Shown one piece after another: positions 2,520 to 55,581 of a DNA stretch of 64,000 nucleotides (positions are counted from its first letter, which is position 1; each line of letters starts with the position of its first letter). The notes beneath the pieces are model-generated. The model worked only from the letters and a program-made list of their open reading frames with translations. It was not told the origin of the DNA and searched no databases. This DNA is from Caldicellulosiruptoraceae bacterium PP1. Lineage in GTDB: Bacteria; Bacillota; Thermoanaerobacteria; Caldicellulosiruptorales; Caldicellulosiruptoraceae. The DNA is taken from NCBI GenBank assembly GCA_041320695.1, contig JBGGOQ010000002.1, positions 21,618 through 85,617 of the forward strand, written 5' to 3'. The position numbers and the translations under genes were made by a program.

Positions 2520-3661
2520 TTTGTTTCTTCACGTCCTTTTATTTTGACCTTTGTTCCTTCTTGGACAGTTGCAGGCGGATTTAATATAACAATATCTTGT
2601 GAATTTAGTCCAAATATAACTTCAGTTTCAATGTCAGAAGATAACCCTGTTTTTATTTTTTTTAGATGAGCTGTATTATTTTCATCAACAATATACACCA
2701 TTTCGTTACCATACTTATCAGTAATAATAGCTTCTGATGGAATTTTGAGTATATTTTCTTTCTTGCCTATTTCGATATTAACATCAACGCTGTAATTAGG
2801 CTTTAAAATATTTTTATCAATTATATCAACATTTATCTTGACAAATGTATCTACACCAGATTGTGTTATACTCTTTGTGGCAGAGGGGTTTATATAACTT
2901 ACTATTCCTTTATATGCCTTATCAAGAAACTTTATTGTTGCTTTTTGGCCAACTTTTATACTTTGTGCATCATACTGATTTGCGTTAATCACTACTTGTA
3001 ACTTATTCAGATTTTCTGTAACAACAACAGGTAACTGCATAGAAGTAAAATTATTTTCTTTAGCATTTATCTGCGTTACAGCTCCATATCCAGTAGCATA
3101 TATATATTTTGGCTGTTTTGAAATATTATCTTTGATACTTTTAACATTTAAATAAGCTATTTCAACCTGTTTTTCTTGCAATTTTATTTGATCATCAATA
3201 CTTGCTGCATTTTGTGATGATTGCAGGCCACTAATTTGATTTCCATATTGAATTTGATTTGACAATGAAGTTTGATTTTTTAATTTTTCCTTTGTCTTTT
3301 TTAGAATATCTAATTGAAGTTTTGCTATCTCATATTGTTTTTGAGCTATTTCAAGTTGAGTTGTATAGTCTTGAACTTCAAACTCAATTAATTTATCGCC
3401 TTTTGCAACAATATCACCTATATTAACATATATTTTTTTTACTTTGTTCGAGGAATAAGGATAATACTCATATTTTTCCTTTGACTCAACATCACCAGTT
3501 GTGGAAAAATTAGCAACAATATTTCCTATTAAAGCTTTGGATGTTATTACTTCAATACCATTATCAGATTTTTTAAAATAGGATAGTAAATAGAAAGTTA
3601 TTACAGTAACAAAAATTACCATGATACCAATAATCAGTAATTTTCGCTTCAAAATAATCAC
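2516..3661 (-). CDS. efflux transporter periplasmic adaptor subunit (HlyD/MacA family)
   Basis: 381 aa with an N-terminal TM anchor, a long coiled-coil region (QLEIAQKQYEIAKLQLDILKK...) and a beta-barrel C-terminus. First gene of a 3-gene minus-strand operon with the ABC ATPase and permease. Confidence 0.8.
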   Translation of the reverse strand: MIILKRKLLIIGIMVIFVTVITFYLLSYFKKSDNGIEVITSKALIGNIVANFSTTGDVESKEKYEYYPYSSNKVKKIYVNIGDIVAKGDKLIEFEVQDYTTQLEIAQKQYEIAKLQLDILKKTKEKLKNQTSLSNQIQYGNQISGLQSSQNAASIDDQIKLQEKQVEIAYLNVKSIKDNISKQPKYIYATGYGAVTQINAKENNFTSMQLPVVVTENLNKLQVVINANQYDAQSIKVGQKATIKFLDKAYKGIVSYINPSATKSITQSGVDTFVKINVDIIDKNILKPNYSVDVNIEIGKKENILKIPSEAIITDKYGNEMVYIVDENNTAHLKKIKTGLSSDIETEVIFGLNSQDIVILNPPATVQEGTKVKIKGREETK

Positions 3662-3801: not shown

Positions 3802-3846
3802 AAAAGTATATAATTATATCTACCCTTTAGAATAGGAGGAGAAGAA

Positions 3847-5421: not shown

Positions 5422-7198
5422 AAGGATTTTAGCTTTCATAAATAATTTGAGTATTAAATATAAGTTATTCATGGTTTTTATGACTATAATTTTCATTTCG
5501 TTTGGTATATTTTCTGTTCTTAATTATTTTATAGTAGGAAGAGATGTTGAAAAGCAAGCCATTTATTCTTCAAACAATATGTTAAATCAAACAGCATCTT
5601 CTTTAGAAAACAAGTTAACATCAGTTAGGAATGCTATGAATATTTTTGCTATAGATGAAACTTTGCAAAAACTTATAACAAAAACAACTGAGTTTTACCA
5701 AAACGATATAGGAAATTGGCTTATAGATGAAAGAGATATTGTAAGGATTTCATATGCAGCTTGCAGAAATTTTGGTATTGATAATATTACAATATACATG
5801 GCATCAGGACTTCCAACAATATACGAAAATGATACACTTCTTCTGTTCAAAAGAATAGAGCAAAGGCCTTGGTATAATGATATGATCAAAAATAACCAGA
5901 TATATAAGTGGATGAAGTTAAAGGATATTGATCCAGATTCTACAAAGAACTACTTTTCGTTTATTAGACTTATTTCAGATACCAAGGATATCACAAAAAA
6001 TATAGCAGCAATAAGGGCAGATATCGCAGAAGATAGTATTATTAGCATATTAGATATGGCAAGATTTACAAAATCAACTGTATCATTTATTGCCGATAGT
6101 CAAAACAAAGTGATATCTACATCTTCAAACAAGGATGACTTTTCTGCAATTAATTTAAAAGATATTATATCAAAAATAAATACTCAAAGGCTATCTTTTT
6201 TTGAAACAGAAAATAATAACAATAAATATCTAATTGGCAATAAGGAGATTGAAGGGACTGATTGGAGGCTTGTTATGGTAATTCCATATAATCAAATACA
6301 TGAGCTCAACATAAAAACCTTAAAACAGGTTATTGCAATAATATTAATTATTACTCCGTTTACATTGATAATTACGTTATTTGCAGTAACCTCAAACACT
6401 AATAGAATTAAAAAACTCATTTACAGTATGAATAAGGTTACAAAAAAAGGAGATTTTGATATAAATATAAAGTCTGATAGTAACGATGAAATAGGTCAAT
6501 TAATTGAAGCTTTTGATTTTATGATACAAAAGATAAAAGACCTTCTTAAAGAACAATATCTTTTAGGAAAAGAGATTAAAAATTTAGAATTAAAGGCACT
6601 TCAAGCCCAAATAAATCCTCATTTTTTATATAATACATTAGATCTTATAAATTGGATGGCTATCAAAAGTGGCAATAAAGATATTTCAAATATAATATCT
6701 TTACTTTCTAAATTTTATAAATTAAGTTTAAGTAAGGGTGAAGATATTGTTACTGTAAAAAATGAGATTGACCATGTAGTCACTTATGTTACAATTCAAA
6801 ATTATAGATTTAATAACTGTATAAAATTGGAGGTTAATGTTCCTGAAAATATTTACAGAGTAAATATACCAAAGCTTACGCTACAACCATTAATTGAGAA
6901 TTCAATAATTCATGGCATTTTAGAGAAAAATAATCAAAGCGGACTGATATCAATTGTTGCAGAAGAAAAACAAGATGAGGTTATTATATATGTAAAAGAT
7001 AATGGGGTTGGTATACCTATTGATAGGCTTAATGAAATTGAAAATAACAGAGTAATTCAAAAAGAAGGGCACGGTTATGGGGTTAAAAACATTAATCAAA
7101 GATTAAAACTATATTTTGGAGATAATTATGGTCTTTTTTATGAAAGTAAAGAAAATGTTGGAACTACTGTTAAGATAGTCATTCCTAAGTATTTTTAA
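5414..7198 (+). CDS. sensor histidine kinase, YesM-like (two TM, HAMP, His_kinase, HATPase)
   Basis: 594 aa with 2 TM flanking an extracytoplasmic domain, a HAMP region and an internal His-kinase motif (INPHFLYNTL). HATPase_c G-boxes DNGVGI...GHGYG. Overlaps the regulator gene by 8 nt. Confidence 0.85.
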   Translation: MIKRILAFINNLSIKYKLFMVFMTIIFISFGIFSVLNYFIVGRDVEKQAIYSSNNMLNQTASSLENKLTSVRNAMNIFAIDETLQKLITKTTEFYQNDIGNWLIDERDIVRISYAACRNFGIDNITIYMASGLPTIYENDTLLLFKRIEQRPWYNDMIKNNQIYKWMKLKDIDPDSTKNYFSFIRLISDTKDITKNIAAIRADIAEDSIISILDMARFTKSTVSFIADSQNKVISTSSNKDDFSAINLKDIISKINTQRLSFFETENNNNKYLIGNKEIEGTDWRLVMVIPYNQIHELNIKTLKQVIAIILIITPFTLIITLFAVTSNTNRIKKLIYSMNKVTKKGDFDINIKSDSNDEIGQLIEAFDFMIQKIKDLLKEQYLLGKEIKNLELKALQAQINPHFLYNTLDLINWMAIKSGNKDISNIISLLSKFYKLSLSKGEDIVTVKNEIDHVVTYVTIQNYRFNNCIKLEVNVPENIYRVNIPKLTLQPLIENSIIHGILEKNNQSGLISIVAEEKQDEVIIYVKDNGVGIPIDRLNEIENNRVIQKEGHGYGVKNINQRLKLYFGDNYGLFYESKENVGTTVKIVIPKYF

Positions 7199-34458: not shown

Positions 34459-34562
34459 TCATTTCTTATATTGATAAAAAATATTATTTCGCATAGTTTT
34501 ATTAAAACAAAGATAATTAACCTTGTTATGCCATACCAAAATAATAACAACACTTTATATGT

Positions 34563-34685
34563 CGAAAAAGGCAAACCTATCGAAAGATAGGGACGCAAAG
34601 CTATGGGTCTAAGGGATTTATATTGGTATATTAAGAGTTATTTTTAAACTTAATTTACCTATGATTGCCAGGCTGCCGAAACATA
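34563..34685 (+). ncRNA. c-di-GMP-I (GEMM) riboswitch aptamer
   Basis: GGCAAACC UAUC GAAA GAUAGG GACGCAAAGC UAUGGGUCUAAGG ... CCAGGCUGCCGAAA matches the GEMM P1/P2 core known from the Vc2 riboswitch (GGCAAACC...CGAAAG...GGGACGCAAAGCC...GGCCUAAACC). It includes a 6-bp GAAA-tetraloop helix. Confidence 0.65.
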
Positions 34686-34791: not shown

Positions 34792-36687
34792 ATGGAGAAA
34801 AAGTTAATTGAACCCAAAAAAATATCAAGTAGACCAAGCAGTACAACAAAGAATGTAGACAATAAGATTAAAAGCAAAACATTGGTAAGGCAGCAACAGC
34901 TATCCGAAAGGTTAGCAGCTGCAGCAGCACAACTTATGGCAGGAATTGAAGAATCTACGGCTGCTGTTGAACAGCTAAATAAAAGTGCAGAACAATTAGC
35001 AGCATCAGCAGAGGAATCATCTGCAGCAGTTGAGGAATCAAAAGCAGCAACAGAAGAAATTAAAAAATCATCAGCTGTTGCTTTAAGAAATTCAGTTGCA
35101 TTAAATGATAGGGCTAAAAACCTAAGTGTTGCTGTAAACGAAACCTCAAAAAGAATTCAAGAGTTAATTGAGGATATTAAGTTATCAGCTAAGAAGAAGC
35201 AAGTTTTAGCGAATATGGTTCATGAACTTGATGCATATTCTAATGAAATAGCCAATATTGTTTCAAATGTTGCAAAGATTGCTGACCAAATAAATTTGCT
35301 TGCATTAAATGCTGCTATTGAAGCTGCAAGAGCTGGTGAACACGGTAGAGGTTTTGCTGTTGTTGCTGACGAGGTAAGAAATCTTGCTGAAGTTGCAGAA
35401 AAATTAGCAAATAATGTAAAGTATATTGTTGAACAAGTAAACAATGGTATAAAAAATGTTGTTGATAAGATTCAACAATCAGTAAAATATGAAGATGAAC
35501 AAGCAAATATTGGTGATGATATATTAAATAATCTAATTAGAAATACACAATCGTTTGAAATTGTTTTAGAAAGGACATCAGATATACATTTAACTTCACA
35601 AAAAACATCTGATGCAATGAATGAATTTTTAAAACTTGTGGAAAATATAGCAACTGCTTCAGAACAAATTGCATCATCAGCAGTCGAAATAAGTAAATCA
35701 ACTGCAGAACAAGTTACAGCTTATAATGAAGCTAATAGTAGAACAAATGAACTTAATGAATTGGCTGAAGACCTCAGAAACTCAACAGATGCTGAAAAAG
35801 ATGCAAGTAAAATTGCTTTATTAGCTGATGAACTTTCTTCTGCTATTGAAGAGATATCCTCATCGTTAGATCAGATTCATGAAGCTTTAAGACAAATTGA
35901 AACAGCTTCAAAAATTGAATCAGAACATGCAGAAGAAGGGCGTGAGGAGATTAGCAAGATAGTCAATGATTCTCAAAAGCAAAGACAAATAGTAAACGAG
36001 TTAGACCAGGTGATAAATAAATTCTCAATTGATTTAAATGAAATTACTAATACAAGCTTTAAATTGATTGAGAATATAACTGAAACACTGCAAATAAACC
36101 ACGAGATAATTAACTTAATGAAAGATATTGAAAAAAATTCACGAAATTTAGAAAAAATTATTGAATCAATAGCATCAGTAACCGTCCAAACAAATATGTT
36201 AGCAGTGAATGGTTCTATTGAAGCAGCAAGAGCTGGAGAATTTGGGAGAGGGTTTTCTGTAGTTGCAACAGATATAAGAACTTTAGCGGGTGAATCTACA
36301 GAAAATGCAGATAATATGAAAGATATTGTAAGAAACGTTCAAAACCAAATAACAAAAATAATAACAGATATCGACAATGCTGTAAATACAACTACATTAT
36401 CAATTGAAAAATCAAAAAAGGATATCTACCAAATGAAAGATACTCTAAAATTAGTTGATGAAATGAAAAAGGCTTCAGATGAGATTAACGTTGAAATTGA
36501 GCAGGTTTTAACAGCAATTGAACAACTTCAGAAAGGCTTTGAAAATATTAGTTCTGCTGCCCAAGAAAATCTATCAGCAGTTACAGAAGCAACTAATGCA
36601 GCTTTAGAACAAAAACGTGGAGCAGATGATTTAATTGCAGCAGTGCAAGATATTTCAAGCTTAGCAGAAGAGATTGAAACAATGTAA
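34792..36687 (+). CDS. soluble (no TM) methyl-accepting chemotaxis-like protein with two MA signalling domains
   Basis: Two copies of the conserved MCP signalling core: [32 protein letters not shown] (about aa 170-200) and [34 protein letters not shown] (about aa 465-500). No hydrophobic segment. Confidence 0.85.
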
Positions 36688-36695
36688 GAAGGGAC

Positions 36696-38123
36696 TTGGT
36701 AGATATGAACAAAGATAAAGATAAGAACAATATGATAGTTAGCTTCAAATTAGGGCAACAGACAATAGGTATATCTATAAATAATGTTAAGGAAATAATT
36801 AGAGTTCCAGAGATTACGCCAGTTCCTTTAACAGTTTCTTACTTTGCTGGACTAATTAATTTACGTGGAGACATTATTCCTGTTATTGACCTAAAAGAAA
36901 AATATAAAATTGATTCCATTGGAGCAACTGAGGATAGAAGAATTATAGTTATAGAAGAAAATATGAAAAAATTTGGTATTATTGTTGATAAAGTTCTTGA
37001 TATTACCGAATATGATGAAGAAGATATTGATAAGAAAAAAATAGGAAGTTACGAAGAAATTGAGGCAATAATTAAACAAGAGTCAAAGCATAGAATTGTA
37101 GTTCTTATTGATATTGCAAAGGTTGTTTCTGAGAATATTATTTTATTTAATTATTCAAACAAAAAAGAGTCAAAAACACAGCATTCAAAAGAGCTGAAAA
37201 ATAATATATCTGAATCTGAAAGCCGATTTATACTTTTTGAAATATGTGAGCAAAATTATGCATTAGAAATAGAAAAAATAAAAGAAATAATGCGATATAC
37301 TGAACTGTCAGAGATACCAGATAATGAAAACAATATTGATGGCGTTATAAATCTTAGAGGTGAGGTAATACCAATTATAAATTTATCTAAAATAATCGGA
37401 TTACAAAATATACCAATAACTGATGCAACAAGAATAATTATTTTGATGGAGAGCGATTATAAAGTTGGATTCATTGTTGATAAAGTAAATGCTGTTCTAT
37501 CAGTAGCTAAAAGTGATATTAAAGAGCCTAGTTTTTTAATAAGCAGTAAAGAAATTATTAAAAATATAATTAATGCTAAAGATTGCTTAGCTATGGTTTT
37601 GAACACAAGCAAGATTTTATCGGGATTCGAGGAAAAAATTAGAAGTGATTATAACACAGGAGATGAATTTATTGGTATGGATTCAAAAAATGATGAAATG
37701 CAAGTAGTAATATTTGAGACTGATAATCAACTTATGGCTTTAAACATTACTGATGTTAAAGAAATAAATAAAGTTCCAAACATTGTTCCACTACCACAAG
37801 AAAGAGAATATATTAAAGGGATTGCTAACCTAAGAGGCGAAATTATTCCAATTTTTGATCTTGATAAATTATTCTATCAAACACAAACAACAATTAATGA
37901 TTCGTCAAGAATAATAATAGTTGAAATAGGAAATAAAAAATATGGAATAATAGCAAAAAAAGTTCTTAGCGTTTCAAGTTTTGGAGATAAAGATATAATT
38001 GAACTGGACAATGAAGAAAACCAAATAAATGTTGATATTGAAAAAAGATATATAAAGTCAGTTCTTAAAAAAGATGAACAGGTTGTTATTGTATTAAATA
38101 CATCTTCGATAATTCATCAATAA
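36696..38123 (+). CDS. triple-CheW-domain coupling protein
   Basis: Three CheW-like repeats end in GLINLRGDIIPVIDL, GVINLRGEVIPIINL and GIANLRGEIIPIFDL. Confidence 0.85.
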   Translation: MVDMNKDKDKNNMIVSFKLGQQTIGISINNVKEIIRVPEITPVPLTVSYFAGLINLRGDIIPVIDLKEKYKIDSIGATEDRRIIVIEENMKKFGIIVDKVLDITEYDEEDIDKKKIGSYEEIEAIIKQESKHRIVVLIDIAKVVSENIILFNYSNKKESKTQHSKELKNNISESESRFILFEICEQNYALEIEKIKEIMRYTELSEIPDNENNIDGVINLRGEVIPIINLSKIIGLQNIPITDATRIIILMESDYKVGFIVDKVNAVLSVAKSDIKEPSFLISSKEIIKNIINAKDCLAMVLNTSKILSGFEEKIRSDYNTGDEFIGMDSKNDEMQVVIFETDNQLMALNITDVKEINKVPNIVPLPQEREYIKGIANLRGEIIPIFDLDKLFYQTQTTINDSSRIIIVEIGNKKYGIIAKKVLSVSSFGDKDIIELDNEENQINVDIEKRYIKSVLKKDEQVVIVLNTSSIIHQ

Positions 38124-38138
38124 GGTGGTAACTTAATA

Positions 38139-39191
38139 ATGATAAATGTTTTAGTAGTAGATGATTCAGCTTTTATGAGAAAAAAAATCAAGGAAATGAT
38201 TGAAAGTGACAGGCAACTAAAAGTTATTGATACAGCAAGAGATGGAATTGAAGCAATTGAAAAAGCTGAAAAATTAAAACCAGATGTAATTACATTAGAT
38301 GTTAATATGCCTAATATGGATGGACTTAAAGCATTAGAAATAATAGTAAATAAAAGAATAGCACCAGTTATTATGTTATCATCATTAACCTATGATGGAG
38401 CTAAAACCACCTTTGAAGCTCTCGATTTAGGAGCATATGATTTTGTTGCAAAGCCTAGTGGAACAATTTCTTTGGATATTGAAAAGGTAAAAGATGAATT
38501 AATTGAAAAAATAAAACTTGCTTATAATGCTGATGAAAATAAAAAATATTTAGTTAGAAAAGATAGAACAAATATTAAAAAAATTGCTGGGGTCATTAAG
38601 CATGATGCATTTAAAGCTGTTGCAATAGGAATATCTACTGGTGGGCCTAAAACAATTATGGATGTCATTCCATATTTACCACGAAATTTAAATGCTGCAA
38701 TATTTCTGGTTCAACATATGCCACCTAATTTTACTACACAATATGCAAATAGGCTAAATGATTCATCTGATATTACTGTTGTTGAGGCAAGTGCAGGTAT
38801 GACTGTTGAAAAAGGAGTATGTTATGTAGGGAAAGGTGGATATCACCTGACCCTACATAAGTCTATTGATGAAAAAATTAGAATTAGACTTACACAAAGT
38901 CCTAAACATCAGTTTATGCCCTCGGTAAGCGTTATGATGAATTCTGTATTAAATATTTTTGGTGCTAATACCATAGGTGTTTTGATGACTGGCATGGGAG
39001 ATGATGGTGCTGATATGATGGTAAAAACAAAAGAAATAGGTGGAGTTACAATCGCTGAATCTCAAGAAACAGCAGTTGTTTTTGGAATGCCAAAAGAAGC
39101 AATTAAAAGAGGTGGAGCAGATTTTATAATACCATCTTATGAGATAGCTGAAAAAATAATAGAATTAGTAGGATTGTTTGAGGAGGAGTAA
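38139..39191 (+). CDS. cheB: chemotaxis methylesterase CheB (receiver + CheB_methylest)
   Basis: N-terminal receiver (VLVVDDSAFMRK...D) and a C-terminal methylesterase with catalytic Ser-His-Asp region (GISTGGP...HMPPNFT...GMGDDGA). Confidence 0.9.
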   Translation: MINVLVVDDSAFMRKKIKEMIESDRQLKVIDTARDGIEAIEKAEKLKPDVITLDVNMPNMDGLKALEIIVNKRIAPVIMLSSLTYDGAKTTFEALDLGAYDFVAKPSGTISLDIEKVKDELIEKIKLAYNADENKKYLVRKDRTNIKKIAGVIKHDAFKAVAIGISTGGPKTIMDVIPYLPRNLNAAIFLVQHMPPNFTTQYANRLNDSSDITVVEASAGMTVEKGVCYVGKGGYHLTLHKSIDEKIRIRLTQSPKHQFMPSVSVMMNSVLNIFGANTIGVLMTGMGDDGADMMVKTKEIGGVTIAESQETAVVFGMPKEAIKRGGADFIIPSYEIAEKIIELVGLFEEE

Positions 39192-39193
39192 GA

Positions 39194-39553
39194 ATGAAAG
39201 TAATGATTGTAGATGATTCACCTATGATTCATAAATTATTAAAAAAAGAAATAGAGAAAAATGGACACCAAGTTGTTTTTATAGCTTCAAATGGTAAAGA
39301 AGCTGTAGAAAATTACATGAACGTTAAGCCTGATATAGTATTTATGGATCTAACAATGCCAGTTATGGAGGGTGACCAGGCATATAAAGAAATAAATAAA
39401 ATTGATAGTAACTGTAAATTTGTTTTTTTAACTGCTCTGGGTGATAATAAAGAATTATTTGAGAATGATAAAAATATCATAAGGATCATAAAAAAACCAT
39501 TTAAACCAGATGAAATAAAAGAAATACTTATGGTGGTAGGTGCTATGTCATGA
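39194..39553 (+). CDS. CheY-like single-domain response regulator
   Basis: 119 aa receiver (KVMIVDDSPMIH...DLTMPVMEG...K). Confidence 0.9.
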   Translation: MKVMIVDDSPMIHKLLKKEIEKNGHQVVFIASNGKEAVENYMNVKPDIVFMDLTMPVMEGDQAYKEINKIDSNCKFVFLTALGDNKELFENDKNIIRIIKKPFKPDEIKEILMVVGAMS

Positions 39554-40026
39554 CTGATTTAATAAATATGCAAATATCAGAAAGCTGCGATAAAGTTGTT
39601 TTGGATGTTTTTACGCAGATGACAGATATTGAACCAGAAAGAGTAAATTATCGAGAAAATAATCTCAATGAAATAGAATATGATGGCATAATCTCAATAG
39701 TAAGTTTTACTGGAGAAAAAAGAGGAAGAATTATTCTTGGTATTCAAAAGATATTAGCTGATTATATCACTTTACAGGTATATGGGAAATCTAATCCAAC
39801 AAATGATGAAGTCCTTGAGGTGATATCAGAACTAAATAACATAGTATCAGGAAATATAGCATCAGAATACAAAAAAATATCTGGGATAATAATGAAGGTT
39901 ACACCCCCATCTATTTTTTTCGGGAAGAGAATTATTGTTTCAACAGCACAAATTACAAATAGCAGGTATGATTATTTAACTTTATATGGCTCCTTTTTTC
40001 TTAATGTAGGATTTGAAAGGGGATAA
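39550..40026 (+). CDS. CheC/CheX/FliY-family phosphatase-like protein
   Basis: 158 aa with an E-x-x-N motif (SELNNIVSGN) as in CheC/CheX CheY-P phosphatases. Overlaps cheY by 4 nt. Confidence 0.6.
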   Translation: MTDLINMQISESCDKVVLDVFTQMTDIEPERVNYRENNLNEIEYDGIISIVSFTGEKRGRIILGIQKILADYITLQVYGKSNPTNDEVLEVISELNNIVSGNIASEYKKISGIIMKVTPPSIFFGKRIIVSTAQITNSRYDYLTLYGSFFLNVGFERG

Positions 40027-40032
40027 AAGCAG

Positions 40033-40494
40033 ATGGCTGAAGAAATATTTAACTCTTTTGATAAGGCATTAAAAAATATATTAGGGCAATTTAACATGTT
40101 ATATGTAAATATAAATAGCTCATGTGATTTACAAAATATAGAAAGTAAAACACCAATAAATATAATATTAGGGCTATTAGGAGATTTAAGGGGTAGTGTT
40201 ATTATTGGTATGGATAATAAATTGGGCAATAAATTAGTAGAAAATATTAGTGACGGTTTTATGAATGATATAAACTCAGAGATGGCAAGAAGTGCTTTAT
40301 CAGAACTTGGAAATATGATAACTGCATATGCAAGCACAAATCTATTTTCATATGGATATAAAACAGATATCACTACTCCTACATTGGTTGTAGGAGAAGA
40401 CTTGACTGCAATTGTATGTAGAACTCAATCCAAAATGATGACTTATGTAACTGAACATGGAAATGTTCAAATGGTTATTGGGTTATGGCAATAA
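40033..40494 (+). CDS. CheC-like protein (second CheC/CheX-family member)
   Basis: 153 aa with an E-x-x-N motif (LSELGNMITAYAS). Confidence 0.6.
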   Translation: MAEEIFNSFDKALKNILGQFNMLYVNINSSCDLQNIESKTPINIILGLLGDLRGSVIIGMDNKLGNKLVENISDGFMNDINSEMARSALSELGNMITAYASTNLFSYGYKTDITTPTLVVGEDLTAIVCRTQSKMMTYVTEHGNVQMVIGLWQ

Positions 40495-40510
40495 GGAGCA
40501 TTATTTATAT

Positions 40511-41335
40511 ATGAAAAAAGAATTAGAAAGTATTTATTATAGAGAGATTAGAAGAATTATTGAAAATGAGTGTGGGATATATTTGTCCGAAGACAAAGAT
40601 AATCATGTCAAGATGAGATTAAACAAAAGGATGAATGAACTGTCAATACCGGATATTTACCATTATTTTAATTATTTAAAACAAGATAAGAAAGAAATTC
40701 AAAAACTTATTAATGAAATAACAGTAAACGAAACTTATTTTTTTAGAGAATTCGATCAGCTTAAAGTTTTTGGTGAAATATGTTTATTAGAGATAGCACA
40801 AGAAAAGAACCAAAATACAAGAAAAATAAGGATTTGGTCTGCAGGGTGTTCTACTGGAGAAGAACCATATTCATTGGCTATTATTGCAAAAGAGATTCTT
40901 GGAGATGAATTTGAAGTTGAAATCTTAGCTAGTGATATTGATCAAAATGTGTTGAATAAAGCAAAAATGGGTATATATGACAAAAGGTCAGTAAGGTATC
41001 TTCCAGATGAATATTTAAACAAATATTTTATTAAAGTAGAAGAAGGCTACAAAATTAACAATGAAATCAAAAAAATGGTAAAATTCTTTCATCATAACTT
41101 GATTAAATATGATGAATATAGTCTATTTAATAATGTGGATTTTATTTTTTGTCGAAATGTATTGATTTATTTTTCAGATGAGAATAAAGCTAAAGTTGTT
41201 CAAGGATTTTATAATGTTCTAAATAATGGAGGATATATTTTTCTTGGACATTCTGAGTCTGTAGGTAGATTATCTAATTTATTCAAGTTGGAAAGAAAAG
41301 ATGGATATATAGTCTATAGGAAACCTCATATATGA
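40511..41335 (+). CDS. cheR: chemotaxis protein methyltransferase CheR
   Basis: SAM-dependent methyltransferase motifs (IWSAGCSTGEEPYSLA...DIDQNVL...FCRNVLIYF). The ATG at 40511 follows AAGGAG. The ORF track extends to 40457 and overlaps the previous gene. Confidence 0.85.
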   Translation: MKKELESIYYREIRRIIENECGIYLSEDKDNHVKMRLNKRMNELSIPDIYHYFNYLKQDKKEIQKLINEITVNETYFFREFDQLKVFGEICLLEIAQEKNQNTRKIRIWSAGCSTGEEPYSLAIIAKEILGDEFEVEILASDIDQNVLNKAKMGIYDKRSVRYLPDEYLNKYFIKVEEGYKINNEIKKMVKFFHHNLIKYDEYSLFNNVDFIFCRNVLIYFSDENKAKVVQGFYNVLNNGGYIFLGHSESVGRLSNLFKLERKDGYIVYRKPHI

Positions 41336-41351
41336 ATGAGAGGTGTTATAA

Positions 41352-43166
41352 TTGAAAATAACTGTTTTAAAGACTGAATTTGATATTTTGGTTGATTTTA
41401 TTAATGAATCTAAAGAACATTTGGAGAATATCGACTCACTCATATTAAAAATAGAAGAAACACTTAATATTGATGACATTAATGAATTGTTTAGAAAAAT
41501 TCATACAATAAAAGGTTTATCTGGTTTTTTAGAAGGACTTGTTGATGTTACTGTCTTATGTCAAATTGTAGAAGAGGTTTTGGATAAATTAAGGAAAAAC
41601 AATATAAAAGTATCATCTGAGATAATAGAATATTTGCTTAAAAATGTAGATATTATCAAAAAGGTAATGTATAAATTAGAGGAAGGTCTTAATAAAGGTG
41701 AAGATATCAATTTTGAGATTGACTTTGATTTATCGTGGTCTTCAAGTCAGAAAGATATGTTAATTAAATCAAATTTATCTGAGAATGAAATTTCAGAAAA
41801 TAGCTTAGACAATAATACTAAGATTGAGAATGAATTAGATAAAAATCAAGAAGAGAATAGAAACTTAAATGTTGATGATGAATATAATAAAAACAATACT
41901 TCAAACAATGATAAATCAGAAAATAAAATTGAGTCAATTGATAATAACAGTACAATAAAAAATGAATATATTAATGAGGACATAAAAATCAGTTATCAAA
42001 AAATAGACAAATTATTAGGGTTAATAGGTGAAATTGTTTCTACCAAAAACTCTTTTTCATATTTACTAAAGGAAATAGAGATAAATAAAAACAATGAGGC
42101 TGTAAAAAAACTTTCAAACCAAATAAAATTTATACATCGTACAGCAGATGAGATTCATGCTGAAATTATGAATATGAGAATGATACCATTAAGCGGTATC
42201 TTAAAAAAATATAATAGAATTGTTCGTGATTTGGCACAAAAAATGGGTAAAAAAGTTGCTCTTAATATAGATTGCGGTGATGTAGTAATTGATAGAAATA
42301 TTGTTGAAAGATTAAATGACCCATTAATACATTTAATACGAAATAGTATAGACCATGGGATTGAAAAGCCAAAAGATAGGAAAAAATATGGGAAAGATGA
42401 AAAGGGAAATATTATAATAAAAGCAAATAATAGAGGAAGATATATTGAAATAAGTATATCAGATGATGGAAAAGGAATAGATACAAAAAAGATATTAAAG
42501 AAGGCAATAGAAAAAGGAATAGTAAGCAAGGAACAGGCTAAATCAATGAATGATAATGATATTATTAATTTAATTTTTTATCCTGGAATGTCAACAGCTG
42601 AAGTAGTAACAGATATATCTGGTCGTGGTGTGGGGATGGATGTTGTAAAATCAACCATAGAAAGGTTAAAAGGTGAAATAGAAGTAAATTCTGAAAAGAA
42701 CATAGGAACTGAATTTAAATTAAAAATACCTTTATCTGCTGCATTAACACAAGGTGTTTTAGTTTCATTTGAGGGAATAAATTATATTATACCTATGGAC
42801 TATGTGGAAGAAACTATAAAGATAAATAAAGACAAAATTGAGTATCTGATTGATAGAGCAGCAGTTAATATTAGAGGCGAGGTAATACCAATAGTTCCAC
42901 TATCCTATGCCCTTTATTATAAAGATAAGTTACCAATTAATTATATTGATGAAATAATGGGTAATGAATCTTTATTACCTATTTTAATTGTTAAAATAAG
43001 AAATGAAAAAGTAGGTATTGCAGTTAATTCACTAATTAGAAATGAAGAATTTGTATTAAAACCATTACCAACTGCTATAGCAAACAACAAAATAGCTTTG
43101 GGAGCCAATATTGATGTTGAAGGTAATGTAGTAATAGTATTAAACCCTGAATATTTTAATTTATAA
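41352..43166 (+). CDS. cheA: chemotaxis histidine kinase CheA (second copy), with an Asn/Asp-rich low-complexity linker
   Basis: Hpt (IHTIKGLSGFL), HATPase_c (DDGKGID...GRGVGMD) and a C-terminal CheW-like domain. TTG start 6 nt after GAGAGGTG. Confidence 0.9.
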   Translation: MKITVLKTEFDILVDFINESKEHLENIDSLILKIEETLNIDDINELFRKIHTIKGLSGFLEGLVDVTVLCQIVEEVLDKLRKNNIKVSSEIIEYLLKNVDIIKKVMYKLEEGLNKGEDINFEIDFDLSWSSSQKDMLIKSNLSENEISENSLDNNTKIENELDKNQEENRNLNVDDEYNKNNTSNNDKSENKIESIDNNSTIKNEYINEDIKISYQKIDKLLGLIGEIVSTKNSFSYLLKEIEINKNNEAVKKLSNQIKFIHRTADEIHAEIMNMRMIPLSGILKKYNRIVRDLAQKMGKKVALNIDCGDVVIDRNIVERLNDPLIHLIRNSIDHGIEKPKDRKKYGKDEKGNIIIKANNRGRYIEISISDDGKGIDTKKILKKAIEKGIVSKEQAKSMNDNDIINLIFYPGMSTAEVVTDISGRGVGMDVVKSTIERLKGEIEVNSEKNIGTEFKLKIPLSAALTQGVLVSFEGINYIIPMDYVEETIKINKDKIEYLIDRAAVNIRGEVIPIVPLSYALYYKDKLPINYIDEIMGNESLLPILIVKIRNEKVGIAVNSLIRNEEFVLKPLPTAIANNKIALGANIDVEGNVVIVLNPEYFNL

Positions 43167-43217
43167 ATAATTGAGAATATATTATATTAATTTTTTGATA
43201 TTAAATTTTAGAAAGTT

Positions 43218-45068
43218 ATGAAGGTTGATATTTATATGGATAATATTTTTGAAAAGTTAAGAAGTAAAAATATTATTGATAAGAATTTTCTGTATTTTGT
43301 AATACCTATATTAATTATAATTGCCATATTTTCTGTATTAATTGTTTCAAATATCTTCTTCAAACAGGTTGAACTTCAAAGGAAGGCTGAATTAAAACAG
43401 AAGGTTGAAATTGCTTATAATACAATTTTGCCAATAATAACAATGAAGAGAGAAAACAAGATTTCTAAAGAAGAAGCAATAAAAAGGATTACAGATATTG
43501 TAAGAAATATGACTTTTAATGATGAATTTTCAAAAAACTATATATTTATGAGCTCATATGATGGAACATATTTGGTACAGCCTTTTGAACCAGAAAAAGA
43601 AGGAACAAATCAATGGAATTATGTAGATATAAAAGGTAAATATATAATAAGAGAGCTTGTTAAAGCAGCAAAAAAGTATCCGCAAGGTTCTTATGTTTCA
43701 TATTATTCATATTTACCGCATTCAAAAGAATATCAACCAAAGTTATCATATGTAAAAGGTATTCCAGAGATTGAAGCATATATTGGAACAGGTATGTATA
43801 CCCAAACAACTTTTAAGAATTTGTATACCCTATTAAATATTCAGCGTCTTATTTTGATATTATCATTTTTGTTTGTTATTATGTTTATACTTATTTATAC
43901 ACAAAACCTAAATAAAAACTATCTTTTATTAAAGAACGAAATAATAAGAAGAAAACAATTAGAAGAGGAGTTAATAAAAGAAAAAAATGATTTAATAAAT
44001 TATCAAAAACAATTAGATTATATAGCCATTCATGATTTATTAACTGGTTTATATAATTATAATTATTTTACTTCTTTAATTTCTTCTTTTCCACAAAATG
44101 AAAGTTTACCATTAAGTATTATTATGTTTGATGTTAATGGTCTTAAATTAATAAATGATACTATGGGACACACCTATGGAGATAAGTTATTAGTGTCGTT
44201 TGCAAAAATATTACTATCTTCAAAAAGAAAAAATGATATAGCAATAAGAATTGGCGGAGATGAGTTTTTATTAATTTTACCTAATACTAATCATAAAAAA
44301 GCAGAGGAAATAACAGATACAATTAAAAGGAATATTGAAAAATATAACAATAATCTTAAAGAAAAACTCCTTGTTTTAAGTGTAGCAACTGGATTTGCTA
44401 CATTAGAAAATAATAATCAAAATTTGTTTGAGATTTATAAACAAGCTGATGACAATATGTATAAGGATAAGCTACTTAATAAATTAAGCTCAAAAAATCA
44501 GATAATTAGTGTTTTGTTAGCTGCTTTGGGAGAAAAAGATAATGTAACCAAAGGACACACTGATAGGGTTAAAAAAATGTGTGAATTAATGGCCCAAAAA
44601 TTAGATTTAGATGATACTCAAAAAAATAATTTAATTTTACTTTCTGAGATGCATGACATTGGTAAAGTGGCAATACCTGATTCAATATTAAACAAAAAGG
44701 AGCCATTAACAAAAAGAGAATGGGAAATCATAAAAAGTCATTCAGAAAAAGGTTATAGAATTGCTTTGGCTTCTCCAGAGTTAGGATCTATAGCTGAACT
44801 AATTTTAAAACATCATGAAAAATGGGATGGGACAGGCTATCCTCTTGGAATAAAAGGGGAAGAGATACCAATTGAGTGTAGAATATTAGCTTTAGCAGAT
44901 GCGTACGATGCTATGACAAATCTACGGCCATATAATAAGGTTAAAACTCATGAAGAGGCTATTAGAGAAATAAAATATTGTTCAGGTACACAATTTGATC
45001 CTAAAATAGCTGAAATATTTATTGAATTATTTGAACCTTATCATAGTAATTCGACCAGATTGAATTGA
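43218..45068 (+). CDS. membrane sensor diguanylate cyclase/phosphodiesterase (periplasmic Cache-like domain + GGDEF + HD-GYP)
   Basis: 2 TM (about aa 25-46 and 205-226) flank an extracytoplasmic domain. GGDEF motif IRIGGDEFLL. HD-GYP domain HDIGKVAIP ... HHEKWDGTGYPLG. Confidence 0.85.
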   Translation: MKVDIYMDNIFEKLRSKNIIDKNFLYFVIPILIIIAIFSVLIVSNIFFKQVELQRKAELKQKVEIAYNTILPIITMKRENKISKEEAIKRITDIVRNMTFNDEFSKNYIFMSSYDGTYLVQPFEPEKEGTNQWNYVDIKGKYIIRELVKAAKKYPQGSYVSYYSYLPHSKEYQPKLSYVKGIPEIEAYIGTGMYTQTTFKNLYTLLNIQRLILILSFLFVIMFILIYTQNLNKNYLLLKNEIIRRKQLEEELIKEKNDLINYQKQLDYIAIHDLLTGLYNYNYFTSLISSFPQNESLPLSIIMFDVNGLKLINDTMGHTYGDKLLVSFAKILLSSKRKNDIAIRIGGDEFLLILPNTNHKKAEEITDTIKRNIEKYNNNLKEKLLVLSVATGFATLENNNQNLFEIYKQADDNMYKDKLLNKLSSKNQIISVLLAALGEKDNVTKGHTDRVKKMCELMAQKLDLDDTQKNNLILLSEMHDIGKVAIPDSILNKKEPLTKREWEIIKSHSEKGYRIALASPELGSIAELILKHHEKWDGTGYPLGIKGEEIPIECRILALADAYDAMTNLRPYNKVKTHEEAIREIKYCSGTQFDPKIAEIFIELFEPYHSNSTRLN

Positions 45069-45149
45069 AGCACAACAAGCCAATAAGTAGCTGAGATTTA
45101 AAAATGTATAAGTGATTTGAGATATAAATAAGATATATCCTTCAATTTT

Positions 45150-45245
45150 AATATTAAAAATTGAAAAAGGCAAACTCGTCGAAAGACTGAGACGCAAAGC
45201 CACAGGCCTAAGGTATATATATGCTATGATGGCTGGATTGTCAAT
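45150..45245 (+). ncRNA. second c-di-GMP-I (GEMM) riboswitch aptamer
   Basis: GAAAAAGGCAAACUCGUCGAAAGACUGAGACGCAAAGCCACAGGCCUAAGG ... GGCUGG. About 75% identical to the aptamer at 34563 over the conserved core. Confidence 0.55.
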
Positions 45246-45329
45246 TGATATTTATAGATAAGGGCTAATAAAGAAGATTTAGGTAAAAAACAACCTCTAT
45301 ACTAAGTCTTACTTATAATAAGTTTAAAA

Positions 45330-45362
45330 CGGGCAACTCACATATTGCCTGTTTTTTTTATT
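45330..45362 (+). terminator. expression-platform terminator of riboswitch 2
   Basis: CGGGCAA ctcacata TTGCCTG followed by TTTTTTTTATT, 20 nt before the RBS GGGGGAAAA and the ATG at 45382. Confidence 0.6.
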
Positions 45363-45381
45363 AATACATGGGGGAAAATTC

Positions 45382-45561
45382 ATGAGGTTAGCACTATTAA
45401 ATGATAAAGTTATTGGTAAAAAATTAGGAATGCCTATTTTTTCATCAGAAGGAATAATAATTTTAAGCCAAGGAACTGTTTTAACTGAAAGAATTATCGA
45501 AAGATTGAGACAAATAGGTGTGGGAACAGTATATATAGATAATGAAACTTTGAAGAAGTGA
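45382..45561 (+). CDS. 59-aa ORF resembling the N-terminal regulatory domain found at the start of HD-GYP phosphodiesterases (orphan or truncated)
   Basis: MRLALLNDKVIGKKLGMPIFSSEGIIILSQGTVLTERIIERLRQIGVGTVYIDNETLKK*. The pattern (hydrophobic-G-x-x-L-x-x-D-I, G-x-L-L, G-T-x-L-T-x-x-I, L-x-x-x-G-I-x-x-V-Y-I) is typical of HD-GYP N-terminal domains. It ends in TGATGATAA, is below the ORF-track size cutoff, and has an RBS. Confidence 0.4.
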   Translation: MRLALLNDKVIGKKLGMPIFSSEGIIILSQGTVLTERIIERLRQIGVGTVYIDNETLKK

Positions 45562-45897
45562 TGATAAAGGAAATTTTGAATTCTTCATTTCGATTAAGGA
45601 CAATTAAGACTTTGCAGCAGTTATTTGAAAAGATCAAAAAGAAAAAAGAACTTGAATCTTTTTGATGCACATAATTATCGTTGACATTCTTAAAATGATT
45701 TATATTAGCTAAAACAATGCTTAAAGACTGCATTAGAGATATAGAATTGTATTATATTGCATTCACTGTAACAACTAAGAAAGTATTAAAAAATTAAATA
45801 AAGATAATTTATTATATCTATATTTATAAGTTTTCTGCTATAATAAATAATAGCAATATTTACATAATTTATTATTATTGTATTGGAGTCTGATAGC

Positions 45898-48800
45898 ATG
45901 AGTTTAAGATTTATTTATGGAAGAGCTGGATGTGGTAAGACACATTTTTGCCTTAATTCAATAAAAGATGATATAGATAATTTAGAACAAAGGCTTCATA
46001 TATTATTAGTACCTGAACAGTTTACATTGCAAGCAGAAAGAGAACTTATATCTGTTTTGAAAAATAAAGGAATAATTAAAACAGAGGTTTTAAGTTTTAG
46101 AAGGCTTACATATAGAATTTTAAATAATGTTGGTAGGGCTAATTTAAAAAATTTAGATTCTGCATCAAAAAATATAATAATATACGATATATTAAAAAAC
46201 CTAAAGGATAAATTAAATATTTTCTCTAATATTGCTTCAAAACAAGGATTTGTTGAAGAGGTTTCAGAACTAATTTCTGAGTTTAAGAGGAGCAACATCT
46301 CCTTAGATATATTAATGGATATCTTGGAAAAAGTTAAAGATGATAAAACATTATACAATAAACTTAATGATTTTTATTTAATATATAATGAGTACCAAAA
46401 AGAGATTAATAATAAATATCATGATTCAGAGGATATAATTACTTTAGCATTATCAAAGCTTGATGATTTATCCATTTATAATGAAGCTGAGATTTGGATA
46501 GACGGATTTTCATATTTTACACCTCAAGAATATAGAATAATTGAACAACTTCTTAAAAAAGCAAAAAGGGTAAATATTACTCTTTGCATTGATAGCTTAG
46601 AAGAAAATCCAACAACAAATTTTGATATCTTTCAAGGGACAAGAAAGATATATAAAAAAATAACTAAAATAGCACAGGGAAATAATATAGAGATTGAAGA
46701 TGCAGTAAATTTAAATAGTGAAGTGTTATATAGATTTAAAGATAGTCCTGAAATTGCCCACCTTGAAAAAAACCTTTACTCATATCCTTATGAAATATAT
46801 GAAAAAACAACAACAGATATCACCTTATTTACATCTAAAAATATGTATGCTGAAGTGGAAGATACTGCTCGAGAAATAATAAGCCTTGTAAGAGACAAAG
46901 AATATAGATTTAAGGACATTGCTATAATTACAGGAAATTTATCAGAATACCAAGCACTTATTGAAAATACATTTGGCAAATACAATATACCATATTTTAT
47001 TGACAGAAGGATTGATATAATAACACATCCAATAGTACGGCTAATTATGTCTGTCTTAGATATTTTTATTGAAAACTGGTCATATGAATCAGTTTTTGGA
47101 TATCTTAAAACTGGTCTTACAGGAATTTCTCAAGCAAGAATTGACATTTTAGAAAACTATGTTCTTGAGCACGGTATAAGAGGAAACCTGTGGACAAGTA
47201 ATAAAGAATGGGATATGACAGCAAGCTTTGATTTTGACGATATAGAAGAAACGCAAGGTGATGTTAGTGATGAAGGCAAGCAACCAAATAAGAGTAAATT
47301 CCTTGAACATATAAATAAAATAAAAAATGATGTTTCATCTCCTTTATTAAGGCTTATGGATAATCTAAATAATAGCAAAAATATGGCTGATTTTATTAAA
47401 AGTATCTATGATTTCTTATGTGATATTAAATTGCCAAAAAGAATCAAAAACTATGTTAGACTTTTTGAAAAGAACAATAATATTGAATTAGCAAACCAGT
47501 TTGTTCAGGTATGGAATATTGTTGTAAATGTATTTGACCAAATTGTAGAGATATTAGGTGATGATAAGTATACTATTAAAGAATGTTCAGATATTTTAGA
47601 ATTGTGTTTTAAGGAATATAACATAGGTGCAATTCCAGCATTTAATGACCAAGTTTTGATTGGAACATTTGAAAGGTCAAAAAGCCATGAAGTTAAAGCA
47701 CTGTTTATATTAGGTGCTAATGATGGTGCAATACCTTCAACCAGCACAAATAAAGATTTGTTGATAGAAAAGGATAGAAGAAAGCTTTCTGAAATTGGAT
47801 ATGATCTTATTAACAACACAAAGATAAACTCAATAGAAGAACAGTTTTTAATTTATAAGACTTTTACTACTGCAAATAAAATCATAAGGATAAGCTTTCC
47901 CATAGCAGACTTAGAAGGGAATACCTTAAGGCCATCTACTATATTATCAAGAATTAAAAGCTGTTTTAAAAATATAAGTGAGAAAAGTGATATTGTACCT
48001 ATTATTGACAAGCAAAAAGAGATAGAACTAATTTCGACAGCTATTCCTACTTTTAGTAATATGGTTTTATCATTAAGAGGTTTTATTGATGACAAAGAAA
48101 TTAGCTCTTTATGGTACGATGTATACAAATGGTTTTATTCTAAAGAAGAATGGCATAATAAATGCCAAAGGATAATAGAAATGTTTAAATATAAGAATAT
48201 AATACCACCGATTAGTACAGAAAAGATGCATAAATTGTTAATTAATAGAGGAAACAAAGATAATAGAATTGTTTTTAGTATATCAAAATTAGAAAGTTAT
48301 TCTGCATGTCCTTTTGCATTTTTTGTCCAATATATTTTAAAAGCTAAAGAGCGAAAGATATTTAATTTAAATCCGATAGATATAGGTAATTTTGCTCATA
48401 AAGTAATTGAAACAGTATCAATAGATATTTATAAAAATGAAAATAATAAATGGAACAACATTGATATGGAAAAGAGTAAAGAAAAAGTTAATATAGCTAT
48501 AAATAAACTTCTTAGTCAAATGGAAAGATCTTCTATACTAAATTCAACAATGTATAGAACATATATTAATAGATTTACAAAGGTTTTAGAAAGGTCTGTA
48601 TATACAATAGCAAAACAGATTAGTGCAGGAGAATTTCTTCCAGATGAATTTGAGGTAGTTTTTGATGAAAAAGGGAAATATCATCAAATTGAAATTGAGA
48701 TAGAAAAAGACAAAAAAGTCTATCTAACAGGCAGAATTGACAGAATTGATATATTTAAAGAAAATAATAAAATTCATTTTAGAATTATAGATTATAAAAC

Positions 48801-53634: not shown

Positions 53635-55581
53635 ATTTACATCCCTTATAGGTAGGCTAAGAACAAAAGAAATCTTGACCTTGAATGGACAGAAGTAAAA
53701 TAGTTTCAATCCCTTATAGGTAGGCTAAAAACGGTGCATGGTTAGCCAAGAACAAAATCCAAAATAGATGTTTCAATCCCTTATAGGTAGGCTAAAAACC
53801 AGGTCATATCCTTCATATTTTTCAAGGAATTCTAAGTTTCAATCCCTTATAGGTAGGCTAAAAACGCTGGAAAAAGCAGATGTAAACATGGTAGGAAGAT
53901 GTTTCAATCCCTTATAGGTAGGCTAAAAACTTAAGTTTTCTAAAGTACAACGTGGCACTTCTTTAGTTTCAATCCCTTATAGGTAGGCTAAAAACCTTAA
54001 AAGAATTAGTCGAGGCAATTCGGGAAAGCGTGTTTCAATCCCTTATAGGTAGGCTAAAAACTGACTAACAATAGTTTTATTAGAAAGAATGCCAACGTTT
54101 CAATCCCTTATAGGTAGGCTAAAAACTTTTTTATTTCTTGCCATTCATACACTTTATCAGCGTTTCAATCCCTTATAGGTAGGCTAAAAACTCAGACAAA
54201 TTTAAAGGTAATTATAATCAAATGGCAGTTTCAATCCCTTATAAGTAGGCTAAAAACCAGTCCAAAAGTTGCAGCCTGTATCAAAAAAGAATGTTTCAAT
54301 CCCTTATAGGTAGGCTAAAAACTATAACACTTGGAGTTATTTTGTGTTTACTAATATTTGTTTCAATCCCTTATAGGTAGGCTAAAAACCTTATGAAGAA
54401 GACTCAACAGTATCAACAGAACAGATGTTTCAATCCCTTATAGGTAGGCTAAAAACTCTGTCTTTTATATTATTTTGTAGCATGTATTCAAGTTTCAATC
54501 CCTTATAGGTAGGCTAAAAACAGTCATAATCATTAGTAACTTTAAAAACTGGTATAAGTTTCAATCCCTTATAGGTAGGCTAAAAACCCAGCAGGCTTTG
54601 ATTGCCTGCTGCAGGAATGCAGGGTTTCAATCCCTTATAGGTAGGCTAAAAACTGATGAAAAATAAATTTTTACTTGTCTGTTATTAGGGTTTCAATCCC
54701 TTATAGGTAGGCTAAAAACGTGGCACCAGAACAAACTTTTTATTCATCAGTTAATGTTTCAATCCCTTATAGGTAGGCTAAAAACGCTAAAAAAGGACCT
54801 GATAGTGTGGAGTATGGAATGTTTCAATCCCTTATAGGTAGGCTAAAAACGATTGTCAGGTCTGCCACTGTCTTGCTGGCAAGGTAGTTTCAATCCCTTA
54901 TAGGTAGGCTAAAAACTTGGCAGATGATATATAGCAACCCAACTGATCCAGGTTTCAATCCCTTATAGGTAGGCTAAAAACCTTGTTTGATACATTTGCA
55001 TGATGGACCACCGACGAGTGTTTCAATCCCTTATAGGTAGGCTAAAAACTGACAGAGAAACAAGGACAAGAAGCATTTTAGATATGTTTCAATCCCTTAT
55101 AGGTAGGCTAAAAACCGTTTCCCTCATTCTCTTTTCCAACGTCATCACCTCCGTTTCAATCCCTTATAGGTAGGCTAAAAACCTAAAGTTGTCGAGGAAA
55201 TAAGACAAATGATATCGGCGTTTCAATCCCTTATAGGTAGGCTAAAAACGAGCAACAAAATATTGACTATTCAGTAATTGATATTGCGTTTCAATCCCTT
55301 ATAGGTAGGCTAAAAACTTCAGCCCAAAAAGTTAAGGAAACTGAACAACAGGTGTTTCAATCCCTTATAGGTAGGCTAAAAACGCCACCAGACAGCGAAA
55401 TAGAGCGTTTACAACGTTAGTTTCAATCCCTTATAGGTAGGCTAAAAACATGGTTTTCCGGTCATTGGTGTTATCAATTATGATTGTTTCAATCCCTTAT
55501 AGGTAGGCTAAAAACAATCAACTGAAAATATTATAAGTTTCAGGAAGCGGAGTTTCAATCCCTTATAGGTAGGCTAAAAAC
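53635..55581 (-). CRISPR. CRISPR array with 30 repeats (29 perfect or near-perfect plus 1 degenerate terminal repeat) and 29 spacers of 35-38 nt
   Basis: The 30-nt repeat GTTTCAATCCCTTATAGGTAGGCTAAAAAC on the plus strand is GTTTTTAGCCTACCTATAAGGGATTGAAAC on the minus strand, ending in the ATTGAAAC 5'-handle motif. Repeats were located individually (first at 53703, last at 55552). The degenerate repeat ATTTACATCCCTTATAGGTAGGCTAAGAAC at 53635-53664 marks the trailer end. An AT-rich leader follows 55581. The repeat at 54228 carries a G-to-A variant. Confidence 0.95.

Follow-up and report, generated by a model that had tools for sequence, protein, structure and literature searches.

A probable HD-GYP pseudogene behind a degenerate c-di-GMP-I riboswitch in Caldicellulosiruptoraceae bacterium PP1

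Does a riboswitch that fronts a very small open reading frame (ORF) mark a new small regulator or the remains of a larger gene? The question is raised by a locus of Caldicellulosiruptoraceae bacterium PP1 that lies within a stretch of 64,000 nucleotides (nt) of contig JBGGOQ010000002.1 (assembly GCA_041320695.1, positions 21,618 to 85,617 of the forward strand; the whole stretch is hereafter the window). Here an aptamer for cyclic di-GMP (c-di-GMP) precedes an intrinsic terminator, a ribosome-binding site and an ORF of 59 amino acids (aa), followed by addB. An initial annotation, made from the sequence, offered two options, a truncated HD-GYP gene in decay or a stand-alone small regulator under c-di-GMP control. 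We conclude that the locus is very probably a truncated, frameshifted HD-GYP pseudogene, the outcome of ordinary decay rather than a novel small regulator, and that the 59-aa ORF is most plausibly an incidental result of the frameshift, not a gene under selection.

The elements described initially are present. An Rfam scan of the whole window matched 45159-45245 (+) to RF01051 over model positions 1-87 with 66.5 bits, against a gathering score of 35 (E = 7.9e-11), and a permissive rescan of 45000-46000 recovered the aptamer and found no other credible family beyond it. The ribosome-binding site and the ORF are also there, the peptide is exactly as quoted, and the frame terminates in TGA TGA TAA; the product is named 'hypothetical protein ACAG39_04095 [Caldicellulosiruptoraceae bacterium PP1]' in the database. 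Profile scans of the peptide were sub-threshold, both for Pfam DUF3391 (PF11871; 14.5 bits versus 27.8, E = 0.052), whose threshold the full-length relative P0021 also fails to reach (E = 0.0047), and for NCBIfam, with a NosR-type profile at the C-terminal end (E = 0.0056). Homology was therefore established by an exhaustive phmmer search of 1.84 billion cluster representatives, which returned 65 matches at E ≤ 1e-3, most of them proteins of about 315-385 aa that are matched at their own residues 1-55 and carry Pfam HD/HD_5, in agreement with the similarity to HD-GYP N-termini that had been proposed. Residues 1-54 of P0003 (327 aa) are 63% identical to the peptide (E = 4e-13), and P0005 (327 aa) is 55% identical. 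A search seeded with P0003 gathered 1,026 relatives at E ≤ 1e-5, nearly all of 325-330 aa and, where named, HD-GYP domain proteins, among them 'HD-GYP domain-containing protein' of Clostridium beijerinckii and C. cellulovorans. Across the family alignment, the HD and HHExxDGxGYP motifs are conserved, as is a CYPNG...QNK.FP.RP domain at the C-terminus. Judged from these alignments, the 59-aa peptide is the N-terminal domain of HD-GYP proteins.

The fold of this domain is predicted with confidence (AlphaFold2, predicted local distance difference test (pLDDT) 91.8). The best Foldseek matches in the PDB are subdomains of RNA polymerase beta' and MoeA/gephyrin (query TM-score (TMq) 0.6-0.77, and 0.6-0.7 for beta'; best E = 8.8e-3), with none at E ≤ 1e-3; phmmer also weakly matches beta' residues 833-877 (E = 0.02), and multi-repeat, beta'-like proteins are present among its sequence matches. 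The predicted fold thus resembles the SBHM-like domain of beta' and DUF3391, with all scores below threshold. The name SBHM (sandwich-barrel hybrid motif), which is that of the beta' literature, serves here as a provisional label.

The lesions are seen most clearly against the closest intact locus, on a JGI metagenome contig (L004), whose true start is a GTG at 1187 and whose product is 327 aa long. A single blastn high-scoring segment pair (HSP) aligns window 45149-45655 with L004 942-1461 at 75.7% identity, from the aptamer to codon 92, and the two loci share leader, terminator and ribosome-binding site; with the frame corrected, the 92 codons are about 74% identical at the aa level. One A is missing from an A4 run of the window (L004 GATGAAAACTATGAAGAAGTG versus window AATG-AAACTTTGAAGAAGTG), and this 1-nt loss shifts the frame after codon 55, which yields the 59-aa ORF and its stops. 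When homologues were compared by tblastn with 45250-45960, their residues 1-55 fell in the frame of the ORF and residues 56-92 in frame 3, at 45546-45656, where the identity is 48.6% to residues 56-92 of P0003, 54% to residues 56-79 of P0002 (E = 2.9e-8) and 66.7% to residues 56-85 of the L004 protein. The remaining 320 bp before addB had been described as non-coding, which does not hold for these ~110 nt of out-of-frame codons.

Beyond codon ~92 the gene is gone. Identity to intact genes collapses after about 45657-45662, and next to the ORF neither tblastn nor blastn found a counterpart of the L004 coding sequence for residues 93-327, which is 706 nt long. About 235 codons (~700 bp) are lost, with the entire HD-GYP domain and the C-terminal CYPNG domain; the locus lacks the HD...HHExxDGxGYP catalytic motifs of HD-GYP phosphodiesterases and the family-conserved residues H130, H162, D163, H174, E201, G205 and G207. 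No relocated copy of residues 93-327 was found in the window, in which the sole other match to the homologues is the HD domain of an unrelated upstream GGDEF-HD-GYP gene (26.6% identity), and no HD or C-terminal coding leftovers were found in 45663-45897 in any frame or at the DNA level; of the remnants that might be sought 3' of the ORF, codons 56-92 were recovered and an HD domain was not. Full-length, intact homologues are known, and the copy here is disabled by its lesions, the pattern of a unitary pseudogene. Of the two options offered initially, decay is the one that the frameshift, the out-of-frame codons 56-92 and the loss of ~235 codons bear out, while for a stand-alone protein a word-indexed search of 5.8 billion proteins returned the self match alone, as did one with a frame-joined 95-aa query. 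A perfect 10-nt inverted repeat has its 3' arm on the deletion breakpoint and may be a scar or footprint of rearrangement. Programmed frameshifting was considered and rejected, as the frame-corrected ORF still stops at codon ~94 without a catalytic domain.

The ratio of nonsynonymous to synonymous substitution rates (dN/dS) relative to L004 is 0.19 in codons 1-55, which are 78% identical, and 0.27 in codons 56-92, with a dS of 0.54 in both parts. Since the untranslatable codons 56-92 are as constrained as codons 1-55, the gene would have been intact for most of its divergence from L004, and its inactivation is, on these substitution rates, recent; the similar constraint in both parts likewise means that there is no signal of selection for the 59-aa product itself. 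The same constraint might instead suggest that the missing A reflects a mistake of sequencing or assembly in the A4 homopolymer and that the real ORF, truncated but longer, has 94 aa (codons 1-92 plus 'SF'), the more so as errors in homopolymers typically take this form. We regard this as unlikely, a run of four A being short for such an error, and the corrected frame still ends at 45663-45665 with the HD-GYP and C-terminal parts absent, so that the conclusion of a truncated pseudogene would be unchanged.

Decay of the same family is also seen elsewhere. In metagenome ERZ27297473, two interrupted copies (L005 237-888 and L006 238-438) have the same family N-terminus, with 68% identity to the window peptide. 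Their lesions differ from those of the window: L005 is interrupted by a TAA in frame behind codon 79 and, by sequence reading, shifts frame later on, and L006 has lost an internal segment, so that residue ~24 is joined directly to the last ~42 residues. Also unlike the window, both copies are without a riboswitch and stand directly after an identical gene end that we read as cheD-like.

In close relatives, the intact gene is accompanied by the riboswitch. All seven loci that we examined for the five nearest proteins of the family (L001/L002, L003, L004, L091/L092 and L095/L096; proteins at least 57% identical to P0003) have an RF01051 aptamer of 76-93 bits upstream of the gene. In more distant members, namely L089 of C. 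beijerinckii, L090, L093 of C. cellulovorans and Bacillales loci from the genome scan, no c-di-GMP-I aptamer was found upstream. As far as these sequences indicate, the riboswitch and the HD-GYP gene form a clade-specific cassette, of which the window holds the front end. A metagenome scan with the family gave one close locus, L087, too short upstream to reach an aptamer; in a scan of genome contigs with the alignment of the family, the generic HD motif prevailed, and the matches listed were mostly distant HD-GYP proteins, with none of the close clade among them.

Several features of these relatives deserve mention in their own right. Two intact aptamers, L001 4668-4754 (also in L002) and L095 2261-2346 (also in L096), have an A at model position 11, which we take to correspond to G20 of the Vibrio cholerae Vc2 aptamer; an A there marks the GEMM-Ib riboswitches of Geobacter that sense cyclic GMP-AMP (cGAMP), so that some cassettes might sense a different dinucleotide. 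L095 has a further c-di-GMP-I aptamer (5606-5692 (-), 89.1 bits) upstream of a gene for a methyl-accepting chemotaxis protein (MCP) that converges on the HD-GYP gene, a pairing that echoes the riboswitch-MCP pairing of the window described below. Tandem glycine riboswitch aptamers precede a Na+/alanine symporter gene directly 3' of the HD-GYP gene in L001 (6182-6372) and L003 (6107-6268). In L093 (C. cellulovorans), two 329-aa HD-domain genes stand in tandem (2501-3490 and 3812-4801), the first being P0149 and the second carrying HD/HD_5, and no c-di-GMP riboswitch was found upstream of them.

Is the riboswitch of the window still a switch? Its score falls below the range of the intact aptamers that front the same gene family, and against the Rfam consensus four of its helix pairs are non-canonical (model positions 17:32 C-A, 19:30 C-U, 42:79 C-A and 49:71 C-A), compared with none or one in the relatives. 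The broken pairs fall in P1b and P2. Four changes are uncompensated, at model positions 32, 49, 79 and 83, columns that are identical in four of the four relatives compared. An A>G change at model position 73 was examined as a further change unique to the window and rejected, since G stands there in L091 and L095 as well. Under strict pairing, the consensus fold comes to a predicted +1.7 kcal/mol, and under lenient pairing with a bulged P1b to -4.2 kcal/mol, and the minimum free energy (MFE) fold of the aptamer itself, at -16.0 kcal/mol, is a different, register-shifted structure that uses up the G20 and G83 equivalents. In the relatives, the consensus fold reaches -17.7 (L001), -24.8 (L004) and -22.3 kcal/mol (L091) and approximates the MFE; pair probabilities of the consensus P2 are 0.43-0.93 there versus 0.01-0.06 in the window. 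Thermodynamic prediction thus gives the window aptamer no stable P1b and P2 from which the three-helix consensus fold could be built.

A second sign of damage concerns ligand contact. Model position 83 (window 45241) is U, and it is C in all seven other aptamers listed. We tentatively take this position to correspond to C92 of Vc2, by a mapping onto the Vc2 sequence that is anchored on G83 at model position 74; in Vc2, one guanine of the ligand is bound by C92 through Watson-Crick pairing. The positions assigned to G20 (model 11, G) and A47 (model 38, A) are kept, and of the contact set G20/A47/C92 the third position is thus U under this mapping. G83, a tertiary-contact nucleotide, is named in work on Vc2, in which C92U lowered function 30-fold in vivo and high c-di-GMP gave partial rescue (bioRxiv 10.1101/617340). 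C92 is less conserved than A47 among natural aptamers (PMC9049102), and the change at position 83 alone is therefore not decisive; the predicted thermodynamics is the stronger evidence of riboswitch damage.

The U at model position 83 admits another reading, in which the aptamer is a natural specificity variant (G20/A47/U92) that prefers an A-containing dinucleotide such as 3'3'-cGAMP, and engineered G20A/C92U aptamers do bind c-di-AMP (PMC7288161; PMC9049102). We find this hardly credible: the change is accompanied by four broken pairs and a misfold is predicted, the gene under its control is dead, C is kept at this column in all seven other aptamers compared, and no second example of the variant was found.

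The terminator of the expression platform has the core CGGGCAA (45330-45336) / TTGCCTG (45345-45351) with loop CTCACATA, or 11 pairs when extended (45326-45355), and its T-run of 8 (45352-45359) is one shorter than the nine U first reported with this stem. It is the one terminator-like site in 45000-46000, against 0.0 expected from dinucleotide shuffles, and the L004 leader has the same hairpin and U-run; the spacer between aptamer and terminator lies inside the single HSP to L004, yet holds the least conserved leader columns in the multi-locus alignment. An antiterminator can be drawn for L004 and L091, where the terminator's 5' half and loop could base-pair with the 3' strand of the aptamer (model ~77-84, with the C92 equivalent). 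When their transcripts are folded only as far as the terminator loop, this antiterminator is part of the MFE structure, at the cost of aptamer P2. No canonical terminator was found in L001, L003 or L095, and in L003 a CCUCC stretch is predicted to pair with the ribosome-binding site. The ancestral locus, a c-di-GMP-I riboswitch followed by a ~327-aa HD-GYP gene, would on these models have worked as an OFF switch: without ligand, the antiterminator (aptamer 3' strand plus terminator 5' half) would form and the gene be transcribed, and with c-di-GMP bound, the aptamer would keep its 3' strand, the terminator would form and transcription would stop.

In the window, the terminator hairpin is predicted at -7.8 kcal/mol and the competing antiterminator duplex at -6.5 kcal/mol, the latter not part of the MFE structure, whereas the duplexes of L004 (-17.1 kcal/mol) and L091 (-14.7 kcal/mol) are both in the MFE; on these energies, the terminator of the window probably forms constitutively, whatever the state of the aptamer. 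Compared with Vc2, the prototype of RF01051, the window retains a full-length model match, the GGCAAA and GACGCAAAGC junctions, the GAAA tetraloop and a terminator-type expression platform 3' of the aptamer, and differs in the four non-canonical P1b/P2 pairs, the U at the C92 equivalent, the predicted register-shifted misfold and the weak antiterminator. The predicted misfold, the U and the weakened antiterminator speak against the initial view that the riboswitch is probably still functional; as modelled, it has probably ceased to respond usefully to c-di-GMP. The gene itself has suffered two lesions, the loss of an A from the A4 run, with a frame shift after codon 55 that created the 59-aa ORF, and the loss of ~700 bp with the HD-GYP catalytic and C-terminal domains. 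With its regulated gene gone, the leader is drifting, its pairs broken, its C92 equivalent changed to U and its antiterminator weakened, to leave an RNA that is predicted to misfold and a terminator that probably forms constitutively (Table 1).

Table 1 Features of the decayed riboswitch and HD-GYP locus, in window coordinates
Feature	Coordinates	Strand	Basis or remark
c-di-GMP-I (GEMM-I) aptamer, degenerate	45159-45245	+	RF01051 covariance-model match
Leader spacer, aptamer to terminator	45246-45325	+	Own hairpin predicted
Intrinsic terminator of the riboswitch expression platform	45326-45359	+	Terminator scan
Shine-Dalgarno-like GGGGG	45370-45374	+	7 nt before ATG; position conserved in L004, L001 and L003
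59-aa ORF	45382-45561	+	Codons 1-55 of the ancestral ~327-aa HD-GYP gene, then 4 frameshifted codons and stop
Frameshift site	45544-45548	+	Window GAAAC versus L004 GAAAAC; pairwise DNA alignment
Out-of-frame remnant, codons 56-92 (NFEEVMIKEILNSSFRLRTIKTLQQLFEKIKKKKELE)	45546-45665	+	Coding 45546-45656, reaching TGA 45663-45665; tblastn
Perfect 10-nt inverted repeat ATCAAAAAGA / TCTTTTTGAT	45633-45642 / 45657-45666	+	Repeat search
AT-rich stretch before addB	45666-45897	+	No tblastn/blastn match to HD-GYP or C-terminal domains

Besides the lower conservation of C92, several observations weigh against this account of a dead gene behind a damaged switch. The single-base deletion sits in a homopolymer and could be an assembly error. 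The aptamer is still 31 bits above the Rfam threshold and keeps the G20 and A47 equivalents and the GAAA tetraloop; its change at 47:75, from A:U to G:C, is compensatory, and in the antiterminator a C80U change is matched by a compensatory G>A in the partner strand, which indicates that selection still acted on the structure of the leader in the fairly recent past. Folding energies leave out tertiary contacts and the binding energy of the ligand, and helices can accommodate C-A mismatches. The ORF follows an excellent ribosome-binding site and spans a complete domain whose fold is predicted with confidence, and a 99-aa stand-alone protein with the same domain exists (the P0030 cluster of five members, one of them in a 4.6-Mb genome). 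No close relative of the PP1 genome was found in the protein collection to show the intact ancestral locus between the che operon and addB.

Taken at their strongest, these points would make the 59-aa ORF a functional stand-alone SBHM/DUF3391-like protein under a still-working c-di-GMP riboswitch: the ORF is intact behind a strong GGGGG ribosome-binding site, it spans the whole N-terminal domain with a confident AlphaFold2 fold, free-domain proteins exist, and the aptamer exceeds its Rfam threshold. We consider such a protein very unlikely, because no other 59-aa orthologue was found beyond the self match, and the short homologues other than the P0030 cluster are mostly singletons, or else copies, like L005 and L006, whose decay can be demonstrated. 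Moreover, the ORF owes its end to the loss of 1 nt, and the 37 codons that follow are conserved out of frame with a similar dN/dS, which leaves no time for selection on a new product; and with defects predicted in both the aptamer and the antiterminator, most transcripts should end at the terminator before they reach the ORF. We therefore favour decay of the HD-GYP gene, and infer that the leader has lost its ligand response and that the peptide lacks a function.

The surroundings show that the loss is confined to this locus. At 34561-34681 (+), a well-paired c-di-GMP riboswitch (RF03167, c-di-GMP-I-GGC; 71.9 bits) opens a 10-kb operon at 34792-45068 that encodes an MCP, a CheW-like protein, CheB, CheY, CheR, CheA and, last, an sCache-GGDEF-HD-GYP protein (43218-45068). 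Since the same genome keeps this riboswitch, decay is local and c-di-GMP signalling has not been lost. The best non-self matches of the protein upstream of the locus are a same-genome paralogue and Caloramator/Thermobrachium proteins, at 60-67% identity over about half of the query. Downstream, the AT-rich stretch is presumably the native upstream region of addB and, as read from the sequence, has an extended -10-like TGcTATAAT (45836-45844), a GGAG ribosome-binding site (45885-45888) and the ATG at 45898; no other RNA family or unusual structure was found in 45556-45900 (z = -0.2). Farther along the window, a CRISPR array at 53703-55581 (+) comprises 29 repeats that match RF01315 (CRISPR-DR2), 30 nt long and ~66 nt apart.

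This arrangement raises the possibility that the remnant leader has a new job, which is compatible with the pseudogene reading: its terminator might end the upstream chemotaxis/GGDEF-HD-GYP operon and so insulate addBA, or c-di-GMP-dependent read-through might feed addB. Over 45000-46000, no terminator-like site was found besides that of the riboswitch; there is none between the upstream stop at 45068 and the aptamer, and since none was found between the 59-aa ORF and addB either, any read-through transcript would enter addB. The argument is purely positional, however; addB has its own plausible extended -10 element, and the weakened antiterminator speaks against regulated read-through, so that we hold a new job to be possible but doubtful. 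A fuller version, in which the dead cassette is reused as an operon terminator or insulator, with residual, perhaps C92U-altered, cyclic-dinucleotide-dependent read-through into the AddAB repair genes and co-expression of the 59-aa protein, seems quite improbable.

Our reading of the locus as a decayed cassette has consequences for annotation and for the interpretation of c-di-GMP regulons. ACAG39_04095 should be marked as an HD-GYP pseudogene fragment, and the RF01051 match at 45159-45245 should not count as an active member of the c-di-GMP regulon. The locus offers a natural example of riboswitch drift after gene loss, in which an aptamer that scores well over the Rfam threshold is nevertheless predicted to misfold, and we caution against the reconstruction of regulons from covariance-model matches alone. 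For the relatives in which the cassette is intact, the predicted OFF logic would mean that, if the HD-GYP enzyme is an active phosphodiesterase, the cassette would give positive feedback on c-di-GMP levels.

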